Below, in pieces: positions 4,671 to 27,016 of a stretch of 64,000 bases of DNA. The stretch spans positions 1 to 64,000 of the forward strand of contig KE561071.1 in the NCBI GenBank assembly GCA_000442015.1. Direction: 5' to 3'. The first letter of the stretch is position 1; every line of letters begins with the position of its first letter. The position numbers were made by a program, and so were the translations under genes. The notes below the pieces were generated by a model. That model saw only the letters and a program-made list of their open reading frames with translations. It was not told the DNA's origin and did no database searches. Origin of the DNA: Rozella allomycis CSF55 (taxonomy: Eukaryota).

Positions 4671-4771
4671 GGTTACAAGTGAAAGTGTTTGACTATATAN
4701 AGTACGGGGTATCAAAAAATCATACCATGCTTACCATCTCCATCTATATTATAGTATCGGTTTTATGATTA

Positions 4772-6004: not shown

Positions 6005-6279
6005 GGTTACCGTTGTTGCTACGGTTGAACCCGGAACCCAGAAAATCAACGCGAATATAGTCTAAACTATTTGGATACACGAAGTTATTAACAACGGAGA
6101 TAAAATCTTGCATTTCGACATTTTAAAGGGTGGATAAGATAGAACTCACTCATTTTACTTTTTGTAGAATCGAATTACAACAGGATTGAATTATAAACTA
6201 TTTAAGTTTCAAAACTTCTTCGAAAAAATCTTGACCACACTGAGATGCAACCACATAAAAGGCTATTCCTAACTCTGTT

Positions 6280-7368
6280 TTATTGAATAACAGATTTTGA
6301 AGTACCTGAATTCCCAGTGAGCATGATACTTTTGCTTTGCGTTTCCATTGATTTTGAAAATTTCGAAGAATTGCTGTATTTTTGCGCCATTCTGTCTATG
6401 AAAATGTACAGACGGTTCAAATGTGAAGAAAGAAAGGGCACATGTGGACATACATCATTCGAGCTACCAAAAATAAGGAACACGAAAATTCCAATAGGTG
6501 AAATCAGGATAGGCAATCCGGGAAATGAAGAGAATGGTGAGTTTCCTGGTACATACGTTGCAATTGCATTATCAACGACCCATGGACTCCCGGCCAGGGA
6601 ATTCACTACTACAATAACAACACATCTAAATATCAATTGCGGTTTTAAAGCGCTTTGTGCGCCAGCGGATAAAGACTTTTTGCGCGCCTGTAGAACTATT
6701 TTTGCAAGAGATACACAACAAAATGCAACTACGCTAAATAGAAGTATTTGTAGTATCAACAATAGATCACGAAAACGATAGTTGTGCAAATCAATAGTGC
6801 AATAAAAATTTGAAATATAGAAAGGGGGATGCGGATCTTGAATTTGATTTAGAGTTTCTCCTACTAATACATATTGAAGGATGGCAACCCCAATCATTAA
6901 GACTGAGGAATTTATCCATGAATATTTTCCTTCAGCCAGAAAGAACTTTGTTAAGAGTTTTCGGATTCTGGTTTCTGGTACTATGTTTTGAGTGCACATT
7001 AAATACAAAACGGATGTATAACCCAATGATACCATTAGAATATAGGCAGACATGAAATATGATATGTTGGCCAAGACATAGCATTCAATTCTGGAGAATA
7101 TATCAAAGTTATATGAGAAATCAATTATCTTGTCTGAATTTAGATTTGTCATTGCGACTGTTTTGAGAGCAGTGAATGAGAAGAAGCAATGAACTATGAC
7201 AGCGGAAATCGCACCATGAAAATACTGCGGATACATTGGCTTTGAACATTTCTTGGGATCAATGATCACAGAGTATAGTAATCTGAACACGGCCACCGAT
7301 TGAATACAAATTGCTGATAGAGATAAAAGATGGACTAAGCAGATGATTAAGACATATAAAGCATTCAT
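6280..7368 (-). CDS. 7TM GPCR-like protein, copy 3
   Basis: 362-aa intronless ORF, collinear with and highly similar to copy 2. Confidence 0.7.
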   Translation of the reverse strand: MNALYVLIICLVHLLSLSAICIQSVAVFRLLYSVIIDPKKCSKPMYPQYFHGAISAVIVHCFFSFTALKTVAMTNLNSDKIIDFSYNFDIFSRIECYVLANISYFMSAYILMVSLGYTSVLYLMCTQNIVPETRIRKLLTKFFLAEGKYSWINSSVLMIGVAILQYVLVGETLNQIQDPHPPFYISNFYCTIDLHNYRFRDLLLILQILLFSVVAFCCVSLAKIVLQARKKSLSAGAQSALKPQLIFRCVVIVVVNSLAGSPWVVDNAIATYVPGNSPFSSFPGLPILISPIGIFVFLIFGSSNDVCPHVPFLSSHLNRLYIFIDRMAQKYSNSSKFSKSMETQSKSIMLTGNSGTSKSVIQ

Positions 7369-7768
7369 GGCAAGTTGGTAACCGTCGATATTTGACTGCT
7401 AAACAACCTTTCATCGATAGGAAATTAATTTGAATTTTAAATAAAGATGAATGAATTAATTAAAATAGTTTCAACTTTCAACTTCCTTTAAAAACGCGAC
7501 CAGCTCAGAAAGTCCCCTTTAGCATGCAAGGAATACTACTATAGTCTAATTCTATACCGAATATGAAATATTGAAATATATGAAATTGATCGCACTTCAA
7601 GTCTTCAGTTCCGTTTGACATATGTATTAATGAAAAATAGCCCAGCCGCAGGTACCTTTGGGCTTAAACTCGAAACCTAGAAATGAATTTAAATAGAGCG
7701 ACATTATTGAACTCGTTATTTTAACGCACTGGCAAGTCGTCAAAATGGAATAGCGTAATGAAATACTA

Positions 7769-8521
7769 ATGTTGAAATTTCAAGTTTTGGAGTTGGAAAT
7801 TGATTGCTCTTCAGTTCCCGTTGACATTTCCATTCCATTAAATTTTCCACCACTGGTTTCTTGCTTTGGAATAAGATCCATGTTTGACGAGCCTATTTTA
7901 TCAATTTCGGAGGGTGCCTCGGTAAACTGTAGCAAACTGATGATTACACCTCACGCTCATGGAACCCATACAGAATGCATATCTCATATTTCGAAATGTG
8001 AAACAAATATGTCTACTGTGCAATATGGTGCGCATAGCCTTGCTTTATTGATTAGATGCGAGATTTCAAATCGAAGTGAAACAAATGAGACTTGTCCAAG
8101 AAACTCTAAAGCTATCGATAGGGTTATAACACGCAATTCTATAGAGTATGTTATGCAAAAGTATGAAAATTTAAAAACTCACATAAACGCAATTATGATC
8201 CGCACATATGCGTCCGATTTACAATTTCCTATTGATTTTACAAATACCAATCCAGCATACTTTACAAAAGAAGCAATGTCTTTAATTTCAGAATGGAGTG
8301 ATCATGTGCTTGTTGATCTGCCATCAATTGATCGCGAAGATGACGGCGGGGAATTGCTAGCTCACAAGGCCTTTTTCAACAATAACACCAACAAGCTGGT
8401 AACGGAACTATGTCGATTTCCTGATTCTCTTGATGAAGGACTGTACATGCTAACCATGTCGCTTCCGAGATGGAATACTGATGCTGTTCCCACCCAGCCA
8501 CTAGTATCAAGGGTCAAAAGA
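7769..8521 (+). CDS. Cyclase-family metallohydrolase (kynurenine formamidase KynB-like) domain with no stop before the HIT region
   Basis: Metal motif PHAHGTHTECISH, plus DLPSIDREDDGGELLAH, VTEL and TDAVP; intronless. Confidence 0.85.
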
Positions 8522-9040
8522 ATGTCTAATTGTATATTCTGCAAAATAATCCAAGGTAAAACAAATACTTAAAATATTAAAAGGTAAGATTTAATATTAT
8601 TTTTAAGCAGGAACAATCCCGTCATTTAAAATTTACGAAAACGAGCTAACATATGCGTTTATGGATATCCAACCTTTATCTATGGGTCATATAGTAAATG
8701 AAATTATTAAATTCGAGTAGCTTGTTATCCCAAAAACACATGCACAGTTTTTCCATGAAGTGCCTGATGAAAATTTGCAGGATTTGCTACCTGTAGCTAA
8801 AAAGATTGCTAGTGTGTTTCATAAAAAGGGAGCGTATAACATTTTGCAAAACAATGGACGACTTGCGAACCAGGTAATTGTAGATTAGCTAAGATATAGG
8901 CTGTTGACCATGTGCACTTTCACATAATTCCCAAGAACAGTGAAGAAGACGGATTGGGTGTTAGATGGAATTCGATGAAGCCCAATATGGAAGATTTGAA
9001 AAAGCTGGCTGACGAGATCCAATCGAAAATTCCGGCCTAG
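8522..9040 (+). CDS. HNT1: HIT-family nucleotide hydrolase (Hint/Hnt1)
   Basis: Spliced: MSNCIFCKIIQG|TIPSFKIYENELTYAFMDIQPLSMGHI|LVIPKTHA...YNILQNNGRLANQ|AVDHVHFHIIPK, containing the HxHxH triad. Confidence 0.93.
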
Positions 9041-9149
9041 TGAGATTGGCACCACTAATAAATTATATTTATATGATGTGCTGGAACGTGTTATTTGATG
9101 ATTTTGGATGCCTTTTAGCGTTTGACCCTGGTTGTGTATTTTAGAAAAA

Positions 9150-12130
9150 ATGGACAACGACTTTTATGACGAATTCGGCAACTATATAGGCCCTGAGGAG
9201 GGTTCCGGATCAGATAATGAGAAATCTAGTGAGAGTGAGTATGGCGAGGCTGCAGTTGAGGAAGCAGAGGGCGAGCAGGCTGTGGTTGTTGGGCCGATAG
9301 ATAGTGGTATGATGAATGTATGTGAGGGATGTAGTTGTTGATGGCCGCGTGATATTGCATGAAGATAAAAAGTATTATCCGAGTGCTGAGGAGGTGTATG
9401 GGGAGGAGGTTGAGGCGATGGTGCAGGATGAGGATACGCAAGCGCTGAGTGTTCCGATTATTGCGCCATTGAAGACGAAGCGGTATGTGTTGGAGGAGCG
9501 GGATTTGCCCGAGACGACGTATTCGAAGCAGTTTCTGGTAGAGTTGATGGGGTACCCTGAGAGGATAAGGAATGTGAGTATTGTTGGGCATTTGCATCAT
9601 GGCAAGACTGCGTTGATGGATGTGTTGGTGCGGGAGACGCATGAGGTGCGTGGGGGCAGGAAGGTTGCTGGTCGGTATACGGATGCGAATGTGATTGAGC
9701 GGGAGAGGGGGTGTAGTATAAAGGCGAGTCCGATGAGCTTGGTTATGAGTACTAGTAAGGGGACGTCGTATTTGATGAATGTTGTTGATACGCCTGGTAA
9801 GAGGGATGTGATGAGTGATATAGGACATGTGAATTTTAGTGATGAGGTTAGTGTGAGTATGCGGGTGAGTGATGGTGTAGTGTTGGTTGTTGATGCAGTT
9901 GAGGGAGTGATGATGAATACTGAGAGGGTTGTGAGGATGGCGTTGAGGGAGGGGTTGCCGCTTGTGTTGATGATTAATAAAGTGGATCGGTTGATACTGG
10001 AGTTGCGGTTACCGCCGAATGATGCGTATTTCAAGTTGAAGCATACGATAGAAGAGTTGAATATGATGATTAAGGGGATGGGCTATAAGAACAGATTGTC
10101 ACCAGAGTTGGGGAATGTGTGTTTTGGGTCTAGTTTGATGGGATTTTGTTTTAGTTTAAAGTCGTTTGCCAGGATGTATTCCAAGGAAGTAGATTGTGAA
10201 GAGTTTAGTAAAAGATTGTGGGGAGATTTGTATTTTAATGAGAAGAGTAGAAGATTTACCAGGGAAAGTGAAGGGAATGAAAGAAGTTTTGTGCATTTTG
10301 TGTTGAAGCCAATTTATAAATTGACATCTATTGTGATAGGGGAGGAAACAAAGGAGATTAAAAAGATGATGATTGAAGAGGTTGGAGTTGAATTGACAGA
10401 GAAAGAGTTGAATTTGGATGTTGAAATGTTGATGAGAAGAGTTTATGAGATATTTTTTGGAGATTTTTCTAGTTTGATTGATATGATTGTAGAAAAGTTG
10501 CCAAGTCCAATGGAGATGAAGAGATTAGGTAGAGGGAATGAGAGTGATGGAGAAGTTTGTTTGAATTTGATAAAGAATTATTCGAATGAAGATGGAACAG
10601 AATTTTATAGTTTTGGGAGGGTGTTTAATGGAACGTTGAGGGTTGGAATGAAAGTGAAAGTTTTGGAGAATGAAGATGAAGAAGATTTGAAGATACAAAA
10701 GATTGAAGAGCTTTATGTGTATGAAACCAGGTAAAATTAGTAGATTTAATGATATGAAAGATATAAAATAAAAGTTGATAAAATTCCAGCTGGAAATTTT
10801 GTTTTGATTAAAGGAGTTGAATTTTGTAAAAGTTGTACAGTTTATGAAGAAAGAAAAGAAGAGATTGAAATGTTTAAAGAAATAAAGTTTGATACAAAAT
10901 CTATAGTAAAGTTATCAATTGAACCCAACAATCCATCAGAATTACCAAAAATGTTGGATGGATTAAAGAAAGTATTAAAAACATATCCCTGTTTAGAAAC
11001 TAAAGTTGAAGAATCTGGAGAACATGTAATCTTTGGAACTGGAGAATTCTATTTAGATTGTGTGTTGCATGATTTAAGAAATTATTCTGAAATTGAAATT
11101 AAAGTTTCTGATCCAATTGTAAAGTTTTCTGAAACTGTAATTGACACTTCTTGCATTAAATGTTACGCTGAAACTCCAAACAAAAAGAATAAACTCACAA
11201 TGATTGCTGAACCTTTAGACAAGGGGCTAGACATTGATATTTCATTGGGTCTTTTAAACAACAAACCAAATCAATTCAACATTCTCAAAAATAAATACAA
11301 TTGGGATGTTTTAGCCGCAAATTCCATTTGGGCTTTTGGTCCTTCCAATCTAGATTCAAATATCCTCTTGGATGATTCTCTACTGTCAAACAAATCTCTC
11401 TTAAACTCTACAAAATATTTTATCACTCAAGGGTTTCAATGGTCAGTCAGAGAAGGTCCTCTATGCGATGAACGTAATCTTTCTCTTTATCTCATCATAG
11501 CCATCAGAAACGTTAAATACAAAATACTTGATGCTGTTCTAGCTAATGAATCAATCTACCGCGGTGGTGGTCAAATCATTCCAACAGCTCGTCGTGTTTG
11601 CTATTCATCTTTTCTTATGGCTTCTCCTAGACTCATGGAACCTGTTTATCTAGTAGAAATTCAAACTCCAGCTGATTGTGTTTCTGCCATATATTCGGTT
11701 CTTGCAAATCGTCGGTACATTCATTCCTCTATTCTAATTACAGTGGTCATGTCACTCAAGATATTCCCAAAGCTGGTTCTCCTCTTTACACTCTAAAGGC
11801 TCTCCTTCCTGTAATCGATTCATTCGGCTTTGAAACTGATCTCAGAACGCACACAAACGGTCAAGCATTCTGTCAACAAGTCTTAGATCATTGGCAGGTA
11901 TCACCTTTTCTTTATAATTCTCTTAGATTGTTCCAGGTGATCCTTTAGATAAATCCATTCTACTAAAACCACTAGAACCAGCATCTGGCCATCAACTAGC
12001 TAGAGATTTCATGCTCAAAACTAGAAGAAGAAAAGGTTTGTCAGAAGATGTTGGCGTACAGAAATATTTTGATGATCCCATGCTGCTTGAATTGGCTAGG
12101 TCTAATATTGTCAATCAGCCATTTATTTAA
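9150..12130 (+). CDS. SNU114: U5 snRNP 116 kDa GTPase (Snu114/EFTUD2)
   Basis: [72 protein letters not shown]; six short introns. Confidence 0.97.
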
Positions 12131-12183
12131 TCACAATAAACTAAAATAATTTAATAAAGAAATTTAATGCGATAATTAATGAT

Positions 12184-12957
12184 TTATTTCAACAACTCTG
12201 CTATAAATTTCCTGACTTCTTCATTCGCTTGGCTTCCGTTCATATTTACTACATGCTCATTTAATATATATTGACGCACCGCGGTAGGCCCAAAAAATAT
12301 CTGACCTTCCTTTAATATTTTTTCTTTGTGCTCATAATCTTTGACAAGATGAACTGCGTTTCTCATTTCCTCTCTCAACTGCCTAATTTCTACAATCCTG
12401 TTATTAATGCTTGCTGTCTTTTCTTTTAAAAACTCAATTCGTTCAAGGTAATCATTTAAAGATGGATTGCTATTATCAAGCGTAGGTATGTCATAATTGT
12501 CATTGTTAAAACCCGCTCTTGACATGTATTTCTCAATGTAATATTTTGGAGCGGAATCGAAAACTTTTTGAACATTCTCTTGAACTTGCGACAAAAGGGT
12601 AGAACAAACATATTGTGAACCTGGCACCAAACTCATTAAAAATCCCTGCGCGAAACTTAGTCGATTAGGATCAAAAGGAACTCTAAATTGCACTGCTTCA
12701 ATTTTCTTGGTTTGACTAATGAACATATCCTTTTCAATATTATATTCTTGCCTTGCTTTTGAGTACTCTNCATTAAAGCCAGCTTTAGGGAGTAAACATT
12801 TGATCATGCAAAAATGAGTAATTGGTTCAAGAAGAGTAGGGAAGTCTCTCCTGTTAAATAAACTTCTTGGGATAACAGATAGTGCCATAGAATATGATAA
12901 GAAATCAAAGAAATATACTTGGATATCAAACAATTCTACTAATTTTGAGAGTGACAT
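12184..12957 (-). CDS. Hypothetical protein with a C-terminal coiled coil
   Basis: 257-codon ORF containing one N at 12770; no recognised motif. Confidence 0.5.
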   Translation of the reverse strand: MSLSKLVELFDIQVYFFDFLSYSMALSVIPRSLFNRRDFPTLLEPITHFCMIKCLLPKAGFNXEYSKARQEYNIEKDMFISQTKKIEAVQFRVPFDPNRLSFAQGFLMSLVPGSQYVCSTLLSQVQENVQKVFDSAPKYYIEKYMSRAGFNNDNYDIPTLDNSNPSLNDYLERIEFLKEKTASINNRIVEIRQLREEMRNAVHLVKDYEHKEKILKEGQIFFGPTAVRQYILNEHVVNMNGSQANEEVRKFIAELLK

Positions 12958-12977
12958 TTTGAATACTGCTAATTTAA

Positions 12978-14194
12978 TGGTAGTTCCTGGTAAACAGATA
13001 AAACTTTTACAATTTCAAGATTTAGAAGGAATTCATGAAATAGACAATGATATTTTATGTTTGGATGGATTAATATTTATTTCAGATGCACTATTGCCAT
13101 TTGATTCCGAAAATGAAAAGGATTTTTATCATCGATATATTAGAAACATCCCGACTGTTATTCTTTACAATCAATTTACACGAAATGTAAAGTGCAACTT
13201 TTGTCCAGGTGATTTTCCTCATTTAATACCTGATTTTCCAATCTTGTGTACTAGTTTGAAATCGGACAGCGACAAAACATTCATCGAATTTCAGGGTAAG
13301 CTTCTAGAGAAACTGAGAGACACTGATACCAAAATGAAAACCAAGCAGCGTATATCTTATTACGACCAAGTTTTTCATGAGAATTGGAAATCTAAAATGC
13401 TGCGAAATAAAGTTAATGAAATAGATGAATTAAGCAAATTACTAGAAAATGTTTCTGAATCCAGAGATCAGCGTAGAAACAGTTTCAAAAAACGTTTATT
13501 GCTGATAGAGGAAAATTTTGCCGATGAGTTGACTGAATACACTTTTAAATTGAGATGTATCTATCCTTGGAACTATTATAAGAAATTTGAGATGTGTAAA
13601 TTCAATGATATTAAATTTTCATCCACATGCCATTACGTATAAACTATTTGGGATTAATTAGTTAGATTACTATAGCTATGCATGATTTAAACAAGACTAT
13701 AATAGACTATGAGGTGAAACTGGGAGAAAATAATAAGAAAACAATAAAGAGCAAAGTAGATTTTACTTTGAGTGAATACATGTGGGAGATACAGAAACAG
13801 AATGATGAAAATGAGAATTGCAAGGTAAGAGATGAATTTGAAAGAGTGATTAAAAACTCTTTGTATGCCCCAGTAATTTAATGTGGTAAATTTTAAAGGC
13901 TATTGGATTATTAATAAGTGCATTAGTGACCCCGGCTCTCAACGTAGCTGTAGGTATTTTCAGTGTTACAGGTGAAGATTTAGGGTCATTTGAATAATAG
14001 GATTTATTTATTTGTACTTTGGATGGAAATCTGTTGTTAAAAAGGCTGTACAAAGGAGACGAGAAGGTCAAAAGTTGTTAGTGAGAAGCGTGAATGAAAA
14101 ATATGAAGCGATTCTGAATGAAAAATTTGGGGAATTGGAAAGGAGAATAGATATTTTGATGAAAAGGAAAGATGAACAATTGAAGGCAATTTGA
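12978..14194 (+). CDS. Hypothetical membrane protein (coiled coil, two TM helices, coiled coil; possibly mitochondrial Mmc1/Fzo-like)
   Basis: Successive ORFs 12959-13642, 13678-13881 and 14012-14194 joinable by short introns; hydrophobic hairpin near 13900-14030. Family call is tentative. Confidence 0.45.
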
Positions 14195-14200
14195 TTTATT

Positions 14201-15663
14201 TTACAAGTATAAACCTTCTGGAGTTCCTTCAGATTTTCTGTATAAAACTTTTTCTTTTGCCTTTCTAAAGTCTTCTGCGGTGACTTTCATTCTTCTTTCT
14301 CTGAGCGCAAGTAAACCAGCTTCAGTACAAATTGCCTTTAACGCATGAAACTATGGCTTACCTTGACATCAGCGCCTGAAAGATCATCTTTTGAATTTAT
14401 GAATTCATCAATGTCAACGTCAGGAGAAAGATTCATTCTTCCAGTATGGATTGAGAAAATTCTCTTTTTCGTTTTTAGATCTGGAAGGGGAAATTCAATT
14501 TTCCTATCAATTCTCCCTGGTCTAATCAACGCTGGATCTAACGTATCAATTCTGTTAGTAGCCATTATAACCTTTTCAGAATCTTTGGTCTATTTTACTT
14601 TGACATCTCCACGTGAATCAAATCCATCCAACTGATTCAAAAGCTCCAACATTGTTCGTTGAATTTCACGCTCACCGCCTGAATTAGAATCATAGCGTTT
14701 AGTGCCAACTGCGTCAATCTCATCTATAAACACAATAGATGGCGCATTTTCTTCAGCTACACGAAATATTTCTCTCACTAGCTTTGGCCCTTCTCCAAGA
14801 TACTTTTGTATCAACTCGGACCCCACAACGCGAAGAAATGTAGCCGACGTCTGATTCGCTACAGCCTTGGCCAGTAATGTTTTCCCTTTTACATTAATAC
14901 AAAATACTTTACCTGTTCCAGGAGGACCGTAAAGAATAACACCCTTTGGCGGCTTTATTCCCATTTCTTCATACAACTCTGGTCGCGTCAAAGGCAACTC
15001 CACTGCTTCCTTAATCTCTTGCACTTGTTGATCCAATCCTCCAATATCAGCATAGCTCTCAGTAGGCGCTTTTTCCAACTTCATGACATTCACAGTTGGA
15101 TCTGTATCATCCTCCAATATACCTACAATCGATAATGTGTTATGGTGTAATAGCACTGAACACCCTGGCTCCAATAAATCTTTATCCACTACACTCGTAA
15201 TCAATACGTAATACTCAGGACCACTGGCATTTGATATAATCGCATGGTCATCATCAATGATCTCCTCCAACGTTCCAACTCCCATCGGTGCTCCCCTAAA
15301 ATCATCCAAAGACGTTCTTTCTTCTCGGCTTCTCTCTTCTCTCGGCTTCAGGATTTCTTGATTCTCAACAAACTCTTCCTCAAGCAACAAATAATCCTTT
15401 AGTCGCTCCATTCTCAACAACTTTAGCTTACATCGGGTATTAGGAAGCACTATTTCTTCAAAAATTAAATTGTTTACCTGTAGGCAGCTTGTTCGCAGAG
15501 GATGGCCCTTTTCTCTTTCTTCTGCCTACTCTGGTTGGCTGTGGTGGCTCCCACTTTTTCTTTGGTTTATCCTACTTTTATTTTTCATTTTATCTTTACG
15601 CTATTGCCCTTTGGATTGGATGGTGCTTGTCCCTTTGTTAAAATAACGAGCAATCATTACCAT
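14201..15663 (-). CDS. RPT2: 26S proteasome AAA ATPase Rpt2 (PSMC1)
   Basis: MGQ start, [48 protein letters not shown]-terminal PEGLYL; several short introns. Confidence 0.97.
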
Positions 15664-15872
15664 GATTAACCAGGGTTAAAGCCACGTCCCAGTACTTATT
15701 TTACACTGGATTTTTACTGTCTTTATTACTTTAAATGAAGTTTTAAATTTATTTTATCTATCTCCATTTATAACCAGGTTGAATTAGACTTTGACATCAG
15801 GTACAGGGTTGATATGCATTTAAGGCTTGATTGGCAGCACCACATGGGTTCAGCCTTGTGAATACAAGACCT

Positions 15873-17033
15873 ATGAATTACAAATACGACAGATTTATTC
15901 AGAAACCCTGTATCGTTGAGACTTTTCATCTGCAAGATCCGACTACCATGCATTCCTCACTTCTTCATTCTTGGTGCAAGCAATCAATAACCAATTCTTT
16001 GCATCTTCCTTTGAAATTATCCAAAAAATTTCCACCAAGCGCAAAAAATTCTGGAGAAACTAGATTGGTTAAAGTTCTCGACGCACCAAATTACTCTGAC
16101 GACTTTTACTTGAATTTATTGGATTGGCACAAGGATTTCCTCGCTATTGCATTGCACAACGTTGTCTATTTATATAACACGAAAACTAGTTCTGTAACCC
16201 CTTTGATAAGCAAAGAAAACTGTACATGGACAAGTTTGAAATTTTCTCCTGATGGCACATATTTGGCAATCGCAGATCAGAACGGACAAATCGATATTAT
16301 TCACATTGATTCCTCACAGACTTTTTGTCGTTTTCCTTCTCAGTGTCGTGGTCGAATTCCAGTTATGAAATGGGCTCATGGTAATCGCCTTTTTGCTGGT
16401 CAAAGGGATGGTTCTCTGGTCGCGTATTTGGATGTACTAAGGTCAACTCATAGCGCTCGCTATATATCTTTACACGGTCAAGAAATATGTGGTATCGACT
16501 TGCACTATAATTCCAACTTACTTGCAACTGGTGCAAATGATAACTGTGTGAAATTGTTTGATATGCGGAATAGTCGATCTTTATATACTCTAAGACATAA
16601 TGCCGCCGTAAAAGGTCTGTGTTTTGACAAGCATCGTAGTAACAAGCTATACACAGGTGCAGGTTCCAAGGACCAGAAAATACGGGCATGGAATGTTTCC
16701 ACTGGTGAATTGTGTTTCTCCCAAGAGACTGGATCTCAAATATGCGACTTGATTCAGCTATGCTCGTCTAGAACTTTAGTCACTTCACATGGTTATGCTT
16801 CAAACGACATAAAAATATGGAAAATTGATAGAGATTGCATTCATCTTAGTGAAGTTCTAGCAGGGCACTCAGAAAGGGTGTTGAAAATGTCGTTATCACA
16901 TGATGAAACAATGATAGCTTCTGTTGCGGGAGATGAGTTTTTAAAATTTTGGAAAATAAGGGAAAAGCCAATTGATTCAATAAGAAAGGAAAATCATTCA
17001 CAGTGTGTTGCTCATCCAACCTTGATAAGATGA
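15873..17033 (+). CDS. Cdc20/Fizzy-family APC/C activator (WD40)
   Basis: C-box-like YDRFI, VLDAP..DDFYLNLLDW, H.QEICG, WD40 repeats and C-terminal IR tail; intronless. Confidence 0.9.
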   Translation: MNYKYDRFIQKPCIVETFHLQDPTTMHSSLLHSWCKQSITNSLHLPLKLSKKFPPSAKNSGETRLVKVLDAPNYSDDFYLNLLDWHKDFLAIALHNVVYLYNTKTSSVTPLISKENCTWTSLKFSPDGTYLAIADQNGQIDIIHIDSSQTFCRFPSQCRGRIPVMKWAHGNRLFAGQRDGSLVAYLDVLRSTHSARYISLHGQEICGIDLHYNSNLLATGANDNCVKLFDMRNSRSLYTLRHNAAVKGLCFDKHRSNKLYTGAGSKDQKIRAWNVSTGELCFSQETGSQICDLIQLCSSRTLVTSHGYASNDIKIWKIDRDCIHLSEVLAGHSERVLKMSLSHDETMIASVAGDEFLKFWKIREKPIDSIRKENHSQCVAHPTLIR

Positions 17034-17085
17034 TTTGTAAATAAATTTGGCACTTAACACCGCTTTTAAATATAAAGTATTGTAT

Positions 17086-18027
17086 TCAACTAACTATGCA
17101 CAATTTATTTCCAAATAATTCAATTATGATTTTAAGAGAACTTTCACTCAAGTGCATTAAAGGGCATTCCGAGACATTAAGATAAGACAATAGGGGGAAG
17201 CGTGTGGGGCAAATTACGTCACCAAGCGGTATTGACAATTTACCACATCCACGCAAAGATAAAATTCTTAGATTACAACGCTCAAAATGAAAAAGTCTAT
17301 CGTCAATTTCAAGGCAATAAGAAAGATCGAGTTCCTCGAGATTGGGACAGTTTATAAGAATGGACAGAAAGCCTTCCCATTCGGCCTTGAAACAACCTTC
17401 GCAACTAAGTTTACGTAATCCTTGGCATGTCGAAGATATTCGCTCAAAACATTTTGAAGTCAATCTTCGAAACCCTCTAAGTGCTAATTCCTTTAAATTA
17501 GCATTGCTGGTACATAAAGCGATGATACCATTGTCGGAGACATGAGATGAACATGTAATAATCTTTATGACCTCTAGGTGTTTTAAATTCTTGGACATTA
17601 ATTCGAGAAATCGATCCGTTATATTTGGACAATCAATAAGCACTAATGTAATTAATTTTTTCAAGAAACAAATTTGTTCCAACTCTTGTCTTCCCATAGA
17701 TGCAGCGTTGCATAATATCAATGACTTTAAGTTCATTAATTGATAATGAAATATCGTCTTAAGATCGCCCATGATAAATGAACCAAAATAAACTTCTTCG
17801 ACATTACTATTCACAACCGGCAACACTTCGTTAATAAGAACTTTAACAATGTCGTCCTCCTTGTAATGCAATGAAATTTCTTTCCACAAGAAATTGTCGA
17901 GGCACACTTTTCTCATTTTTTCTGATGTTAGCATTAATCTTATAAGACTTGGCTTTGGTAAAAATGATAGAATATGTAACTGAATGTCCAAAGGAAGATA
18001 ATTCATTTTTTGAATAACGGTACCCAT
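17086..18027 (-). CDS. F-box/LRR protein
   Basis: F-box LPLDIQLHILSFL followed by cysteine-containing LRRs (LEELDLSYC, LRILSLRGC). Confidence 0.88.
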   Translation of the reverse strand: MGTVIQKMNYLPLDIQLHILSFLPKPSLIRLMLTSEKMRKVCLDNFLWKEISLHYKEDDIVKVLINEVLPVVNSNVEEVYFGSFIMGDLKTIFHYQLMNLKSLILCNAASMGRQELEQICFLKKLITLVLIDCPNITDRFLELMSKNLKHLEVIKIITCSSHVSDNGIIALCTSNANLKELALRGFRRLTSKCFERISSTCQGLRKLSCEGCFKAEWEGFLSILINCPNLEELDLSYCLEIDDRLFHFERCNLRILSLRGCGKLSIPLGDVICPTRFPLLSYLNVSECPLMHLSESSLKIIIELFGNKLCIVS

Positions 18028-18143
18028 CGGAACATTATTTTAAATTTTTAAGTTAATTACTATCAAAAGATTCAAAACATCGAATTGCAAATTATTTCGA
18101 AATTATTTGTAAACTTCTAAAAACCCAGAGCCACCTTTCAAAT

Positions 18144-19024
18144 ATGGATTGTGGCTTGATTTGTGCGTCTCAACAAAAAGACGATTTTTTTGTGAACTAC
18201 GTTAAAAAACGTATAGACAGCATAATACAGGGTACTATCAGTAAAAAGGCAGCGTTTCTGTAATTAAAGGTTCAAGAAATTACCTGGTTTGTAGCAAGCA
18301 TGTTGAATATTGGTCTTCTATTATTTACGTGATGTTTACAACATTATCAGGTAATCAATTTTAATGAAAATGACATGACAAACAGACAATCGGGGAAAAT
18401 TTTAGCAGCATAGCGAAGAATAATTGTCACCGTTTGCCTGTACTTGTGTCTATTCCTAATGATATAGAGACGGTTATTCCTCATTCTTGGAGAAAACCTC
18501 ATTCCGTACATGACTGATATTGGTTTTGTCAAATTGAATTTAAAGTGGTTCCATTTTATCGCGAAAATCGTCGCTACAAAGCTTGTACCCTTGAATGTGG
18601 CCATCTTTTTTATTAATGGAAATTATCCGTCAATAACTCGGAGATTGCTGAATATCACATACAATGCAGATTTTAATCCCAGACATCATTCTTACGCCAT
18701 TCTTGGATATATTTTATTAGCGAAAGTTATGTTACAATCGATCTTAGATGCTTCTAGGTATTTCAAGAATAAACAGAATGGTCAGCCAACTATGCTGAGC
18801 GAACGCGCCTATCACGGTATCACTAAATTGAAATGTCCATTGTGTCTAAATACTTTAGTCCATCCAACGGTATCAGATTGCGGTCATTTATTTTGCTGGC
18901 ATTGTATTAATTCATGGGCTCTTACTAAGGTATGCTTTTAATTGATTTTGAAAAGGATGTTTGTCCAATATGTCGTCGAAGCCTGTCCATTCAATCCTTG
19001 TATCCTGTTTTCAATTTAAATTAA
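18144..19024 (+). CDS. PEX10: Peroxisomal RING E3 ligase Pex10
   Basis: N-terminal SQQKDD, YPSITRRLLNITY, and RING CPLC...CGHLFCWHCI...|CPICR; several short introns. Confidence 0.8.
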
Positions 19025-19288
19025 AATATTTTACTAACATTTTATATTCATTTAAATTTTAGCTGGATCAAACAAACAGCTTTATCTTCCGTGAAGTTCT
19101 CTGAAAATCATGTTATTTATTGAACTGAGTGATGAAAATCTATCTATTGGCAATTTTTTTCTTTAACGGCTACAAAAATCATTTGATTTTTTAGTCATAA
19201 AATTCTAAATTAAACAATTATTTGATAATGGGCCTGTCATATAAACTCAGCGAACAAGCCACCAATAAAATTAGGAATTCAAAATTCG

Positions 19289-20574
19289 ATGGGAAACCCA
19301 ACTTACGAGCAAAAGTCTTCCACTATTCTTTACCATTTATACTCCAAATTATTTCATATCATCTATAGTTCACGATGCCCGGAAAATCATGAAAATGTGA
19401 AGACAAATAGTTGGGTAAGGTTGTGGGATACCTCGCCATAGTTTAATATAGAGACAAAAATTTATGAAGTGATAGTTTCAGAAGTAAAAAGGTTTAAGCT
19501 AGAAGATTGGAATAAGAAAATTAAAGATTGTTCAATTAAAGTGATTCTAGATATTTCAGGAGCAAAAGATAATGTCTATCTAAAATCCATGGCTAATGAA
19601 GATTATCGAAAAGTTGAGATTTCAGGCGTTGATTCGATCATTTTAGAAGAATGGAGGATTTGGTTTGATTCATGGGACATTGACAAAATTGACCTTCATC
19701 ATTGGTATAAAGTAATAGTGCTTTTTATGAGAAGCCTTTATACAATCACCAGGGTGCTACCGGCCTTTGGCCTATTCCGAACTTGCGCTTCCAAAAACAT
19801 TGGACTATTGAGACTATCCTTCTTGAATGACGAGTCCATGTCTCATTCAGTTGATAAAAGTATATTTTCTGAAAATGTTGTTGAAACTGCAAAAGAGTAT
19901 TCTTTTGAATCAATTGCTACACCATGCGGAAGGTTAAATGTGTCTGTTATATATAGATCTAACGCTAATTTCTTTTTCCCTGATCCAGCGGCTTTAGAAG
20001 TAATTCTTATAGTAGTTTATTCTAGGTTCCAATGCGGAATTACAGAAAACCTGATTCATGCATCAAATGCGAAGTTCCCTCTAGCTCTTTCCTTCAATAT
20101 GAATCACTGGCAAGTAACAAAAGTTCAGAAAGTTTGAGGCCCCCGTCTTTTCCCCAGTCTTGGAAGTCTGATGTTTCTATAAAGTTTGAGGATCCAAACA
20201 GGAGGAACAATGAGGATAGCCATTTGCAGCATTTGATTTTGATGCTGAATCATCCTCCCTCATTATCTATATTCAAACGACCTGACGACATGATCGGCTC
20301 TTCATCTATTTCTAACATGGAATCATCGATGGTAAAAGGAATTTCTGAATTTGTTTAGATCTTATTTGAAAAGTATAAGCAATTTCGCGGAGAGTTGAAT
20401 TCGAGTAGTTTTATTGGTGCAACCAATGTTGTTTCACCTCAGCCAAACCCTGGAAGTTATAAAGAAGAGCAATTTGAAGAGAAATTTATCAAAGACATTT
20501 CCTCTGTTTGTTTAAATAACCCTTCCAAAGTGACATCATTATTAACAAGAAACTTGATGGCCGGAAATAAATAA
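19289..20574 (+). CDS. ATG13: Autophagy protein Atg13 (HORMA domain plus short disordered tail)
   Basis: YSKLFHIIYSSR, NSW|FNIE, ILEEW, VLFMRSLYTITRVLPA and TPCGRLNVSVIYR match the Atg13 HORMA pattern. Confidence 0.8.
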
Positions 20575-20608
20575 ATTCTTAGCACTAACATTTTCTGAAT
20601 TTTCACTT

Positions 20609-22254
20609 ATGCAAAATTTGAAACAAAAGCTACGTTTCTCACCCGAGTTTTATAAAGATGCGTTTGTTCTATTTCATAAAATTAAGTAAATATAAGATTA
20701 GTATTTTCCTAGTGATTGTGAAACAAAAGACCAAGTCAAGAACTTAAATCAAACGTTCAAGGAGATGTTAAGAAATTACATTAACGTAGTCGAAGAAGGA
20801 GAACATTTAAATAAGATAAAGGTTATTTGGAATCTGGCAGATATCTCAATATTTCATTCTACAAATACCTTTACTGAAGAACTTGTCGATTGGTTTAATG
20901 ATTCTTTTCCAAGTAAGATGAATATTGTATTTGTGACATTGTAAATGAAGACAAAATGGAACAGGAATTACAAAATACAAAGGATGCACATCAAACAGCA
21001 TATTTTTCATCATACATGATAAAATTGGCGCTTAGAGGTCATTTGGATGTTGTTTCATCGTTTTTTCCAGAGATTAAAAGCTTTATCGAGAATTTAGACA
21101 TAGATGACGATGATGTGATGCTGGGGCAACCATCATCAAATAATGAATTGGTTAATACGTTAAAAGATATAATACGAGGTGAAATGGAAGTTATTAAAGA
21201 GAACTCAACGTCTTTATTTGAAGGATTTTGCGCATTTTTATACTATGGGCATCGTGACGTCCAAGTGGAGCATGTGCCAATTCTGATGGATAGATATGGA
21301 TTAGAGGCCACCGCATGCAATTCTTTTGAAACAATAATATACTCTATGCTCGTTAAAGATATTCCTGCATGCATTCAGCTCATTAGCGCAATGGATAGTT
21401 GGTTCATAACTCATATTCTTGAACTGTGGAGAGTTTATGGAGTTTTTGACAATATTTTCGATGGAGATTTAATTTTTGAAATAAGGGAATCATTCTTATT
21501 GGATTTTTCTTTCTCTCTTCTTTGCGAGCCTGAAATTTGGTTTTTGGCCTTTGATTTCGTTATTTATACCGATAAATGGGAATCTAAAGTGGGCAAAGTA
21601 GTTAGTTTTGTATTTGAAAATGTAGATGATACAAAATGTTTATCCAACCGACGACAATATAGAGAAAATAGAACTAATCGCGAAAAATTACAATTTAAAT
21701 AATGAACTGAAACAAATTTACTCTGTAACCAATAATGATTTATACGATAGGTACTTGGAAAAAGAAAGTATGATCAGGGTTCCCTACTATTGGCTTTATC
21801 CTTTTACATTAAATCTGAAGAGTGGCAAAGAGTGGATTCAATTATTGTCCATTTAATTTATTCAAATTCAAAAATAAACAAAATCGAAATTCCTGAGCAA
21901 AATGCAACAGCTTTGGAGCATTCTTCGCACATGAAAATAATCCCACTATATAACTCCCTTGCAGAAGCGATTGAGGATAACAATATCAATAAACAATGCG
22001 GGCTGTTGGTTCAAATTTTAGAAACTGGTCTTATGAAGGATGAACTTTGGCCTAAAATGTTAAAGCTGGCAGGTTTCATTATGCAGAGCGACAACCCTAC
22101 TTTGTTTAATGCTGACCAAATATTTGAAATCATGAGATGTTTTAGTGATATAAACTCTAAAGGCATCATAAACAATCCAGAACAGCTCGATACTTTCGCC
22201 TTGTTGTTGTCTCAAAATTTGGCTCATAATTACCTAATTGATCCCTTTCAATAA
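20609..22254 (+). CDS. NUP85: Nucleoporin Nup85-like
   Basis: Helical protein with WFITHILELW, RESFLLDF and IWFLAFDF resembling Nup85 conserved segments; multi-exon, start approximate. Confidence 0.65.
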
Positions 22255-22264
22255 AGAAATTTTA

Positions 22265-22616
22265 TTAATTATGTCGATAGTATTTTAAACCTAATAATAT
22301 TAGTATACAGTTTAATACCTAACCAATTCCAAAACACAAAAATTAGAAAAACGGGGATGATCATAGGAAGCACGAGACAATAATATTGGTCATATTTAAT
22401 ATAATCAATCCACTTAAGTTTATATCTACAATCCAATACCTTGATTCCACTATCTGGAAGAAATTTACTAGCCAAAATTGAATAACATGAAACAGCGAAA
22501 AATAGAAAAGCAAAAACCAAAAGAATTATTCCCGAAAAGGGTGTTACGTCATATGAATTTGGGTCTACTTGTAGCGTACTTTTTCTGTAATGATCTTTGG
22601 AGTTGAAACGCGGCAT
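22265..22616 (-). CDS. PIG-Y-like GPI-GlcNAc transferase subunit
   Basis: SKFLPDSG, DQYYCLVLP and spliced end WNWLG|LKYYRHN*; two short introns. Confidence 0.75.
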
Positions 22617-22829
22617 TTACAAATTTTTAGAAATAGTCAAAACGATGATATCATGATTCAACAAGAATTATTTTCAATGTTTTGTTAGGTGGGGGAACGA
22701 CAATCTGACCATTGAATCTGCAGTTGCATTTGTCCGCCTGTTATTATCCAGCCGCTTTCTCAACACTTATCAAATTGACATTGACAAACACTGTTATGTG
22801 CAGCCGTGATTGTTCAATTAAATATTCTC

Positions 22830-23035
22830 GCACAAAATATAAAGCCGGTTACATAGGATATTTCTGACTTGTGGGCGTCATAAACGTTACTCAGAATGCC
22901 AGATCGCATTACGTTTTGCATTAAGCTGGTTGAAATTCTTCCACTATTCTTTTTTTCACTTTTGTCAACTAGTTCCGTCGAGACTTCATCATTGAACTTT
23001 TTGACTGGAAAAACTCAGGACGTCATTATTAAATT
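22830..23035 (+). pseudogene. Degenerate duplicate of the upstream region and 5' end of the adjacent ABCG gene
   Basis: Shared blocks CGGTTACAT, GTGGG.GTCAT, GAATGCCAGATC and TTTTGCATTAAGCTGGTT, plus relic TSSLNFLTGKTQDVII versus TSLLNILAGRTQGGII. Confidence 0.75.
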
Positions 23036-23256
23036 AGCAGGTAAAATTTCAAGGCGCTAAAAGAATATATAGCAATAATTTAGTAAAAAATATTTTACAG
23101 CACACCTAGCTTTGTTTTATCGGCGAAACATCCACAAAGTCATCTTCATTATTCAATGCTATTAACAAAAGCATAAAGAAATAGCAGCACAACATATTAT
23201 GTCGGTTACATGACACATTTTTGACTCGTGGGAGTCATTATTTAACCTTTCTGAGA

Positions 23257-25255
23257 ATGCCAGATCCGAGGCAGCAGCATTTTGCATTAAGCTGGTTCAA
23301 CATTTCTTTTACCATTAAAGAAAGGAAAAGATTCTTCAAGGAAGAAAAGAAGCCAATTAAGATTCTTGAAAATGTGAGCGGGACTGTTAAACCAGGCGAA
23401 ATGGTAGCGATATTAGGTGCTAGTGGTAAATTGTATTTACTTTCTAAACCCGGTTCTGGCAAAACTTCTTTGCTGAACATTTTGGCAGGAAGAACACAAG
23501 GTGGTATTATTGAAGGAAAAGTCTTAGTAGTTAAAATTTCATACACTCAAAAGATAAATAATAAACCACGTCAAAAAGATTGGAGAAGGAGAGTTGCGTT
23601 TGTGGAGCAACTTGATCTCTTATACGAACACTTAACTGTTTATGAAACCGTGTTGTATGCTGCATATTTACGACTTTCCGGGAAAACCAATAAAGAAAAA
23701 GAAGCTAAAGTTGTTGAGCTTTTACGAACACTGGGCATTTTACATAGAAAAGACGCATTTGTTGGTGGAAGAAAAAAGTTTATATCAGGAGGAGAGAGAA
23801 AACGAGTCTGCATTGGTAATATCTATAAAATATTTGAAATTAGCAATTGAATTGGTAAATTTAATTGAGCATTAGTCAATTTAGGTAACAGACCCCAAAA
23901 TTCTTTTCCTGGGTAATTCATATTGTTTCTTTTAATTTAGATGAACCAACCAGTGGTTTAGACTCCGCTAATGCTCTTTCATTAATTGAAGTACTTCGGC
24001 AATTATGCCAAACACATGGGTCTAGTGTCTTACTAACGATCCATCAACCCAGATATAACATTTTAAAAATGTTTGACAAAATAATTTTGTTGGGCAAAGG
24101 TAAAGTAGCATATTCAGGATCTATTGATGGTACGATTGTCTTTATCTCTAACTCTAGGGGCACTAAACCATTTTCAAAGTATAAACTATCCCATCCCACC
24201 TATGACAAACCCAGCCGACCATTTCCTTGGTATCTAATATGATTATTGAAAATTAAGATATTACAACGATAGACAGGAGAACTAGAGAATTGGAAATACA
24301 GACTTCTAAAAATATTGACTTTATTCTTTCAAAATGGAATGAGTCAAGAATCGAATATCAACAAATTCTTGACGGTTGTAATAACGATAATGTTTCATAT
24401 GATTGGGCATTGATGTATCCACAAGAAGTGTGGACTCTATTCACTCGATATTGGAAGGAGACAATACGTTACACCTTAAGACTGTTCGCATTTTTCTTCC
24501 AGATTGTATTTCTTACCGTTATTTTAGGGCTGGTGTTTTTACAAATAGGATTTACACAACAAGACATTCAAAATAGGGTTGGTGTATTGTTTTTTATTAT
24601 AATCAATATTGCATTCACGACATTGACGCCGTTAATTAATGAATTTCCACTTGAGAAACCACTGATAGTCAGAGAACGATTTTCTAAATCTTTCAGAATA
24701 TCATCATTATATATAGCTAAAGTCTTAGCTGGACTACCGATTCTTCTTTTAGGAAACTTTATCTACGGATCTGCATTGTATTGGATGATTGGTTTAAAAT
24801 ATGATGCTGGAGCTTTTTTTTCATTTTTAACCTTTCTTGTAGGACTGGTAATATTTTCACAAGCATTCGGTCTATTTATTGGGGCTCTTGCAGATAGCCC
24901 TCAAGTAGGGCAAATTATTGGCCCTACATTTTTGATCATATTTGTCATTTTTGGCGGAAATTTTGCAAACTTGGAGACCATTCCTTCTTGGTTCGCTTGG
25001 CTACTTTGGTTGAGCCCCATAAGATATTCGTATCAGAGTTTATTCGAAAACGAGTTTTCCGGCTTGACATTTACCTGTTCTAGTGGTTCTAATGGATGCA
25101 TAACAAATGGGAATCAAGTCATTGAAAACTTCGGCTTAAACGTCCCCCAAAAGTGGGTTTCATTTTTGATTATTTTAGGATTCGCCATGTTTTTTCATTT
25201 ACTCGCGTATATTGCGTTAAGAATAACCACCAGACCACACAAAGTGAGAAACTGA
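23257..25255 (+). CDS. ABCG (White-family) half transporter
   Basis: Walker A GASG/SGKTS, ISGGERKRV, LFL|DEPTSGLDS, TIHQP and an ABC2 membrane domain; includes 11-nt and 28-nt microexons. Confidence 0.93.
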
Positions 25256-25273
25256 AAATAAAGATCAAATTTA

Positions 25274-26572
25274 TTATCCTAACAAATCATATTCATCATC
25301 ATCAAAGACATTATCTTCAAAGTAAGTTGTTAACAATTGATTCACCTTATCATCAATGTCATGGACAACATCATCACTCTTGTCTTGTTCAACATCTTTT
25401 AACTCTGGAATAACATAATCCTCGACTGTTTCATCGGCGTTCTCGAGTTTATTCATGTCCAAAAACTGAACACTGCTGTCAAAACTACAATCATTTTTCA
25501 TCAATTCTCGTAGTTTTTCAAGGGTAATGTCAGTGTACCACCCTGTTTTTATCTTTGTACTCAATTTTAAGGTATTACATTGCATTTATCATTATGATTA
25601 GATAAATCTAATCCGAGCTTCAAATCAGGTCTGATATCTATTATTTGAACTCCGTCATTTGATGCATCTTCTATATCTTTAACTAATTGGTTATGAAGTT
25701 TTCTAAAGTAAACAACTTGGTAATACCTCATAACGGGGCGCAGGCGAGGATCCAAACCGAATTTCACCCAACAATTTCGCCATGGCCCTGAAGAGCTATA
25801 ATATGCACATAGAGCTAGCGCATTTCTAAAGCTTCGGTAGTCTGCTTTCAAATATGTCTCCAACGATTTGCGAGTCCAGATAGGTCTTAAAGCAAATGCT
25901 TTTTCGAGGCTACCAATCAACTCGGGATTTATTGAAGAACGAATATTCTCAACTTCTATGGTTGGTTTTAAAGGGACATTGTCGATGAAACTTGCTTTTA
26001 CATAATAAAACCTCGCCCCTTTCCTTGGCGTTCTCTAGAATGATTATGAATAATCTTCCTACGTTTACGTTTTCTTTGATTCTAAATTGAGTTAATCAAA
26101 AGAATGTACTTTATAAATGTGGGCTGCTGTATTTGTGACATGGTCAACGGAGGAAACAAAAGTGGTGCATGTGACACGTGTTGCAGAATTTCTTTTACTT
26201 TTAATTCAATATCATTTATATTATGAGTGCTTGACCTGCATATATTAATAATGTCCTTCACTGGGTTTGCAGGAGTTTTATAATAAAAATCGGCTAATCC
26301 TCGGAAAAGACAGGCGGATTGAACACAAATATCTAATACTTTGGCCTCTGAAATACTTTTAGAATCATCGTTCACATCAAATTCTATAAGTCCAAACTCT
26401 TTTTCTACTATATTCCCGGGTATGCTAAAATCCCCTTCCTCAACTTCGATCAAACATGATTTCGTCTGCTTATTAATCTATTCATAAGTATGAAAATATT
26501 TACTTTAAATCTTTGACTGAAATCGCTGCCCTTTTCAACTCTTCCGGGAAATTCCACAAGAAAATAATCCAT
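25274..26572 (-). CDS. TFC1: TFIIIC subunit tau95 (Tfc1/GTF3C5)
   Basis: First exon MDYFLVEFPGRV, then FRGLADF, RPIWTR, SGPWRNCWVKFGLDPR, TGWY and an acidic tail. Confidence 0.85.
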
Positions 26573-26608
26573 TTTTTGGAATTACGAATACGGATCCCTG
26601 TATTAAAC

Positions 26609-27016
26609 ATGAATCGTGCAAACATTTTAATCAAATCATTACTCAAAATAAATACCCAAACCTTCAGAACAAAACAAACCGTTTCCGTCGCATTCACCAA
26701 TTTCGATGTCATTAAGAGGCTCAGAACAGCATTATTCGACAATGTGAATGTGCTTAGCAAAGTTGAAATCAGTGAAAAAGAAAGAGAAAACAGAGAATTT
26801 ATTTGTGAACAATGGAATCTGTATGTCTCATTGAAGGACGAATTCGAGCGGTACAAGGAGGCACGGTTTTTGATCTCAAAACAGAACGCGATGGAAACAT
26901 TAGAGAAATTATGCCCTAAACTAGCTCAAATTGCAAAGGAAGGTGATAATGAAAAATGTCCGGTGAATAGACAATGGCCTACAATCACACCACCAAAGAA
27001 GCCATATATTGAATGA
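26609..27016 (+). CDS. Mitochondrial ribosomal protein mL40-like
   Basis: Basic presequence-like N-terminus; W.LY, A.ETLEKLCPKL and PTITPP pattern of mL40. Confidence 0.7.
   Translation: MNRANILIKSLLKINTQTFRTKQTVSVAFTNFDVIKRLRTALFDNVNVLSKVEISEKERENREFICEQWNLYVSLKDEFERYKEARFLISKQNAMETLEKLCPKLAQIAKEGDNEKCPVNRQWPTITPPKKPYIE

Follow-up and report, generated by a model that had tools for sequence, protein, structure and literature searches.

A 55-nt interruption (8556-8610, + strand, GTAAAAC...AAGCAG) separates the CIFCKIIQG and TIPSFK coding blocks of a HIT-family gene in Rozella allomycis. Judging from its sequence, these 55 nt are probably two complete mini-introns of 28 and 27 nt, which lie end to end and would be removed in two steps. 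We analysed the gene within a 64,000-nt stretch of contig KE561071.1, hereafter called the window, and all positions refer to it. The structural reading, in which two complete mini-introns meet at a zero-length exon, is well supported. We observed this anatomy directly, together with the length statistics of the surrounding introns, a positional rule for 3′ splice sites, the scores of the sites involved, and the junction at the protein level. A split of 55 nt into 28 and 27 nt by chance is unlikely.

Removal of the 55 nt is needed to restore KIIQG/TIPSFK, and its position and letters agree with an earlier sequence-only reading of this DNA. The gene is laid out as follows.

7769 to 8555, + strand: exon 1, cyclase-like (PF04199; Pfam Cyclase, E=4e-06), stop-free into the HIT start ...MSNCIFCKIIQ plus the first base of the Gly codon

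8556 to 8583, + strand: first mini-intron unit, 28 nt, GTAAAAC...TTAAAAG, 86% A+T

8582 to 8589, + strand: inner junction AG/GTAAGA, an acceptor followed directly by a donor (zero-length exon)

8584 to 8610, + strand: second mini-intron unit, 27 nt, GTAAGATTT...AAGCAG, 81% A+T

8605 to 8610, + strand: tandem acceptor, AAG then CAG; the AAG (8607) gives a 52-nt removal and one additional Ala

8611 to 8693, + strand: exon 2, ..G TIPSFKIYENELTYAFMDIQPLSMGHI

8694 to 8720, + strand: ordinary 27-nt mini-intron

8721 to 8873, + strand: exon 3, HIT core (PF01230; Pfam HIT, E=5.1e-08), 100% identical to the public protein P0001

8874 to 8899, + strand: ordinary 26-nt mini-intron

8900 to 9040, + strand: exon 4, histidine triad HVHFHIIPK, stop TAG at 9038-9040

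Excision of all 55 nt gives ...CIFCKIIQGTIPSFKIYENE..., and the frame stays open to the stop at 9038-9040. As that reading had proposed, the AAG/GTAAG within the interruption divides it exactly into 8556-8583 (28 nt) and 8584-8610 (27 nt). The sole internal GT of the 55 nt lies at 8584, and the sole AG of the first half lies at 8582-8583. Thus, 28 + 27 nt is the only possible subdivision, and it leaves zero exon bases in between. The two halves are not copies of one another. Removing just one half had been said to leave a premature stop, which is true whichever half is taken: loss of 8556-8583 only gives ...IIQGKI and a stop in frame, and loss of 8584-8610 only causes a frameshift to ...IIQGKTNT and a stop. 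Since either half-spliced RNA carries a stop, the RNA is productive only when doubly spliced.

The encoded protein is an Hnt1-like member of the HIT family (PF01230), having both the HIT domain and the HxHxHxx histidine triad. Its public counterpart, P0001, is a 387-residue 'HIT-like protein [Rozella allomycis CSF55]'. It reads ...CIFCKIIQGTIPSFK..., including KIIQGTIPSFK, so its annotators treated these 55 nt as a single intron. P0001 and the translation of the window differ at a few upstream-domain residues, which marks the window as a different assembly, haplotype, or isolate of that organism or of one very near to it. The exon 1 start at 7769 comes from our own gene finder; P0001 begins MLKFQVLE. 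Aligning P0001 with ten fungal HIT proteins, we find that the pattern C-x-F/L-C-K/R-I-x-x-x-x-I-P is ungapped at the junction in 9/9 homologues, this count taking only those of the ten that cover the junction. The mature product thus keeps no base of the inner site at the protein level (not cDNA), as neither P0001 nor any of the 9/9 homologues has an additional residue. The last six bases, AAGCAG (8605-8610), are a NAGNAG tandem acceptor, that is, two in-frame acceptors 3 nt apart, so the 52-nt and 55-nt removals both keep the frame. By site score alone, our gene finder took the AAG at 8607. The residue that this would add is absent in 9/9 homologues, and homology thus favours the 55-nt removal at the distal CAG over the 52-nt removal at the AAG.

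Some further features of the gene family deserve mention. All ten aligned fungal homologues (10/10) start at or near MSNCIFCK and are without the cyclase-like PF04199 part of the Rozella ORF (7769-8555, + strand), which points either to a Rozella-specific fusion or to two genes that no stop codon separates. In the public P0001, too, the cyclase-like and HIT parts are modelled as a fusion. The Synchytrium endobioticum HIT homologue, P0003, has a 14-residue insert (alignment columns 290-303) exactly at the ordinary 27-nt intron of Rozella (GH/LVIPK). The insert resembles an unspliced intron in the public model, in which case the intron position would be shared. A metagenome scan with P0001 returned L001 and L002 (43-45% identity) with the HIT part unbroken; these are not orthologues.

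We then describe the introns of the window as a whole. The window is gene-dense, has about 35% G+C, and follows the standard genetic code (long ORFs are open under table 1). Counts of GTAA...YAG peak at 26-28 nt (29, 24, and 17 sites) against a background of about 5-20 per length. For gene prediction we used our own Viterbi gene finder, which combines codon log-odds with splice-site weight matrices and sets a penalty of 5 on lengths outside 22-32 nt. The strict run gave 55 introns: one of 23 nt, 18 of 26, 16 of 27, nine of 28, three of 29, three of 30, one of 31, and four outliers of 52, 86, 125, and 128 nt. The 52-nt outlier is the locus at 8556 run to the AAG. The final set (n=61) combines 51 strict-run introns with 10 added by hand, is thus mostly gene-finder output, and was checked against homologues in part; its lengths are 23 nt (1), 26 nt (19), 27 nt (17), 28 nt (15), 29 nt (4), 30 nt (4), and 31 nt (1). 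Within this window, therefore, GT-AG introns form a narrow mini-intron peak, with 51/61 at 26-28 nt. The sequence-only reading had called the interruption about twice the usual intron size and each half a typical intron, and both descriptions hold: 55 nt stands against 23-31 nt in 61/61 introns and one additional intron of 38 nt, and 28 and 27 nt fall inside the peak. A 27-nt stop-free intron at 23527-23553 had been missed by our finder and was exposed by the alignment to a Gonapodya ABCG protein.

The signals of these introns are reduced. The donor is GTA in 49/51 introns with A at +4 in 43/51, the introns end in A/T-A-G, and there is little other signal. No branch-point motif was definable in the window; YTRAY occurs in 22/59 introns at scattered positions, and the most enriched intron 5-mers, TTTGA and TGAAT, are enriched only about 3-fold. 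The 55-nt stretch has no YTRAY in its first half and one in its second half, 16 nt from the end.

The longest supported intron of the window is 38 nt long (20913-20950, + strand), with an alternative placement at 20927-20964 that is also 38 nt. Its flanking exons match Pfam Nup85 (profile 63-118, E=2.6e-05; profile 236-378, E=8.3e-15) in different frames and hence can be joined only by a 38-nt intron. As for earlier records, PMC6349667 touches briefly on short Rozella introns of about 30 nt, and PMC8042348 gives a range of fungal median intron lengths that starts at 29 bp, in a passage that names no species. Babesia microti introns are 20-25 bp (PMC3467087). Our literature search, made in article texts, found no published intron-length distribution for Rozella.

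The 3′ splice site of these introns follows a simple positional rule. Counting from the first intron base, 60/61 introns use the first AG that lies 26 nt or more from the donor; the one that does not is a GTTGAG model of 23 nt, which is doubtful. In 37/61 introns, one or more AGs at 4-25 nt are passed over. The 38-nt intron follows the rule in both of its placements. Because our finder penalised lengths outside 22-32 nt, the rule is partly conditioned on that choice. Applied to the interruption, the rule gives the following result. The donor at 8556 is followed by AGs at 28, 33, 52, and 55 nt, of which the rule picks the first, at 8583. From the donor at 8584, AGs lie at 24 and 27 nt; the rule passes the AAG and picks the CAG, i.e. 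8610, which is the same acceptor that protein homology requires. We found no published description of such a rule for Rozella in the literature search.

Site scores were ranked against 59 introns of the window. Three of the four sites reach the 98th percentile, namely the inner acceptor (7.3 bits), the inner donor (9.3 bits), and the outer donor at 8556 (9.4 bits). In comparison, the outer CAG acceptor at 8610 is weak (2.9 bits, 7th percentile). An acceptor followed at once by a donor inside an annotated intron, AAAAG/GTAAGA at 8583/8584, is the arrangement known from recursive splicing. By sequence, joining CAAG to GTAAGA would regenerate a donor in the same 9-mer context, which again scores 9.3 bits.

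To estimate how often such a split arises by chance, we generated 400,000 random 55-mers that had the base composition of introns and kept GTAA...AG at their ends. An AG/GT with both halves at 23-32 nt appeared in 2.8% of them, an AG/GTA split in 1.0%, and an AG/GTAA with both halves at 26-29 nt in 0.17%. Scanning both strands of the window for abutting GTA...AG/GTA...AG units of 22-32 nt, we obtained 13 combinations at 10 sites. Four of the 10 sites were examined individually (8556, 18904, 21725, and 6275), and among these only 8556 needs both units. At 6275, only the second unit is needed; the first is 24 nt and in frame. At 18904-18955, a RING-finger pattern is restored by removing 18930-18955 alone. 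At 21725-21777, the Pfam Nup85 match begins at residue 1 of an exon that starts with 27 nt of this stretch. The RING-finger ORF (Pex10-like pattern, about 18470-19100, + strand) had not been called by the strict finder, and the exonic sequence directly before its 26-nt intron (18930-18955, + strand) looks like a second intron.

We also asked how far GTAA by itself marks a donor. The predicted coding sequence (37.8 kb) contains 91 GTAA against 123 expected. As a test of donor sufficiency, this depletion is modest and unspecific, and it does not exceed that of the control words TTAC and GTTA. GTAA alone is clearly insufficient as a donor, so that the inner GTAAGA need not be used. The RNA run X1, which bears the same species label, showed nothing from this organism (share 0.00); over 7000-26999 at 80% likeness it gave 27 short pieces, mostly below 90%, and no intron joints.

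Other apparent long introns of the window break up into chains of mini-introns. The 125-nt outlier (23816-23940, + strand) consists of minis of 28, 30, and 28 nt around exons of 11 nt (23844-23854) and 28 nt (23885-23912). The 128-nt outlier (24130-24257, + strand) consists of two 28-nt minis around a 72-nt exon. Both belong to an ABCG transporter gene. With the chain model its protein reads ...GALNHFQSINYPIPPMTNPADHFLD and aligns gap-free to a Gonapodya ABCG protein, with a local score of 1096, where the long-intron model reaches 924. What lies between the ABC signature and Walker B is encoded by the micro-exons. By frame and length only, the 86-nt outlier (26024-26109, - strand) is most simply read as 28 + 28 nt around a 19-nt exon. 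The gene concerned is TFIIIC-subunit-like (its public protein, P0128, matches Pfam PF09734), and its stretch 26035-26109 (- strand) probably contains two 28-nt introns and the 19-nt exon. P0128, the public Rozella model, is without 4, 21, and 29 residues that are present in our mini-intron model, and it skips the 26024-26109 region. These gaps suggest that mini-introns and micro-exons are handled wrongly when this genome is annotated automatically. Given exons of 11, 19, 28, and 72 nt between minis, a zero-length exon can be seen as the end of the series.

Relaxed gene-finder runs yielded 12 more candidates, all 33-200 nt long and thus beyond the 23-32-nt range. Eight of the 12 sit at gene ends of the strict run, and four were examined. 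We took the candidate at 20913 to be a genuine 38-nt intron; the one at 13596 is explained by a 29-nt intron (13637-13665), and those at 24100 and 26035 resolve into mini chains. In the ABCG gene we also noted a 27-nt in-frame stop-free insert (23426-23452, + strand, GTAAAT...CCCG) within the Walker A loop, GASG/KLYLLSKPG/SGKT. It is missing from the Gonapodya homologue; it starts like a mini-intron and ends in CG, and no AG occurs within 45 nt of its start. Its 3′ site may be non-canonical, or the insert may come from a variant, a sequencing error, or damage to this allele.

These observations allow us to outline how the 55 nt could be removed, the use of both inner sites and the order of the steps being the parts that we infer. 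As the rule pairs the donor at 8556 with the first AG at least 26 nt away, ligation is expected at 8583. A spliceosome assembled on the donor at 8556 would then ligate at this AG, joining the exon end ...CAAG to GTAAGA and thereby recreating a top-scoring donor. A second round would remove 8584-8610, in which the AAG at 24 nt would be passed and the CAG at 27 nt used. On paper, the reverse order of the two removals is equally possible and would give the same mRNA. The sequence-only reading had attributed the two steps to a length-constrained spliceosome. Its two complete, abutting mini-introns with a zero-length exon agree with the lengths, the site scores, and the 3′ rule; the idea of a hard upper length limit needs to be relaxed in view of the 38-nt intron (20913-20950). 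As this intron obeys the rule, the constraint looks like a positional choice of the first suitable AG and not like a ceiling.

A simpler account is a single ordinary 55-nt intron, spliced in one step from 8556 to 8610 with its branch point in the second half, in which the inner AG/GTAAGA is a chance or historical feature that is unused or rarely used. We consider this unlikely, although several points speak for it. The public gene model has one intron. One-step removal of 55-nt introns is unproblematic for spliceosomes, those of other fungi included. The 38-nt intron means that there is no hard ceiling at 31 nt, exonic GTAA is mostly ignored and context thus matters, the only YTRAY of the 55 nt sits in the second half, 16 nt from the end, and our own intron set is partly conditioned on a length prior. 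Against these points, one-step splicing must skip the AGs at 28, 33, and 52 nt, whereas 60/61 introns end at the first AG found 26 nt or more from the donor. The argument that skipping a well-placed AG has no precedent is in itself weak, as it is carried by one or two long introns. The inner sites that would be skipped are among the best-scoring of the window and the acceptor that would be used is among the weakest, and the exact split would occur by chance in only 0.17-2.8% of cases.

The single intron might also be shortened by an internal A-U hairpin, which would place the inner AG/GT in the loop and bring the outer sites to mini-intron distance. The predicted minimum-energy fold (-4.9 kcal/mol) indeed pairs intron bases 13-26 with 35-52 around the loop AAGGUAAG, hiding the AAG at 50-52 while keeping the CAG unpaired; its inner stem persists when the flanks are included. 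Its stability is no better than chance, however: 26/200 shuffles fold as well or better (z = -1.14), and 33/200 do so with the flanks included (z = -1.20). The stem is entirely A-U, and the looped-out length leaves no clean 26-28-nt remainder. We regard such a hairpin as highly improbable. An error in the gene model (the CIFCKIIQ exon not being joined to the TIPSFK exon) or in the assembly appears more improbable still. The window is a draft with six single N, it differs from P0001 at several residues of the upstream domain, and the public models of neighbouring genes are demonstrably imperfect. Yet the CxFCKIxxGxIPS block is contiguous in 9/9 homologues and the frame is exactly restored; no N is near the locus, the nearest being at 4700 and 12770. 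A duplication artefact is unlikely, as the halves are not copies of each other.

Two abutting mini-introns have relatives in known systems. The sequence-only reading had described recursive splicing as known mainly from very long animal introns, which is incomplete: zero-length-exon recursion has been shown in Schizosaccharomyces pombe (bioRxiv 10.1101/226894) and in BOT1 of Cryptococcus neoformans (bioRxiv 10.1101/224170). At the ratchet points of Drosophila and vertebrates, zero-nucleotide exons serve the recursive splicing of very long, kilobase introns, as described in bioRxiv 10.1101/006163. Like these, the Rozella sequence has an acceptor adjoining a donor (AG/GTAAG) in one annotated intron, and it would regenerate a donor and keep no base. 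Unlike these, it spans 55 nt and not kilobases, each unit is a standard intron of the genome, and use of the sites is a deduction from sequence. The text of 10.1101/226894 describes two zero-length-exon cases in S. pombe, including SPNCRNA.445 with a 336-nt intron, and that of 10.1101/224170 describes 375 nt of BOT1 that are removed as 210 + 165 nt by zero-length-exon recursion. Spliceosome profiling and RT-PCR are the evidence given there for the S. pombe and C. neoformans cases. Their units measure 165-210 nt and are not bound to any genome-wide length rule, whereas the Rozella units measure 27-28 nt and their evidence is of the sequence kind. In absolute terms, the 55-nt stretch is far shorter than the recursive cases in the literature that we compared.

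Stwintrons differ in their construction. There, an external intron has its donor, branch, or acceptor element broken up by an internal one; in Rozella, both units are complete from GT to AG and simply adjoin, with no overlap. What the two may share is a complex intervening sequence removed by consecutive standard splicing reactions, as stwintrons are characterised in PMC7138796. The same source describes, for Lipomyces, that a long intron can gain inner splice sites ('stwintronisation') and be removed in one or two steps, and a similar origin, i.e. new splice sites inside an older, longer intron, is possible for Rozella. In length peak and reduced signals, the Rozella introns resemble the ultra-short regimes of Paramecium, Stentor, chlorarachniophyte nucleomorphs, myxobolid myxozoans, and Dicyema, for which PMC13644364 reports a narrow peak below about 30 nt and signals of roughly GTA...AG; the lineage is a different one, a fungus-related parasite. 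Our literature search found no description of abutting mini-introns for any ultra-short-intron organism.

Zero-length-exon recursion in fungi is thus already known. What would be new here, going by the sequence, is a 55-nt stretch whose units are the standard introns of the genome. If the two-step removal is real, it places recursive splicing at the opposite size extreme from its discovery, and recursion would then owe its existence to a positional 3′ ruler that is unable to get past a well-placed AG, and not to the demands of huge introns. The locus would then offer a compact natural substrate for spliceosome reassembly on a donor made by the preceding ligation. It would also test the minimum 'exon' between two introns (11 nt, perhaps 0). 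We put forward a broader idea tentatively, as possible though rather doubtful: that the Rozella 3′ site is purely positional (first AG at least 26 nt from the donor), such that longer sequences with such an AG are removed only piecewise, as mini chains with exons down to 11 nt or zero. The 55 nt would then be an obligate recursive intron, the shortest known, and one of perhaps hundreds genome-wide that are hidden as 'long' introns. Gene finders set to the usual lower limits for intron and exon size mis-model this genome. The Rozella lineage is a key sister lineage of microsporidia, and the residues missing from P0128 imply that protein sets of this lineage may carry many internal deletions.
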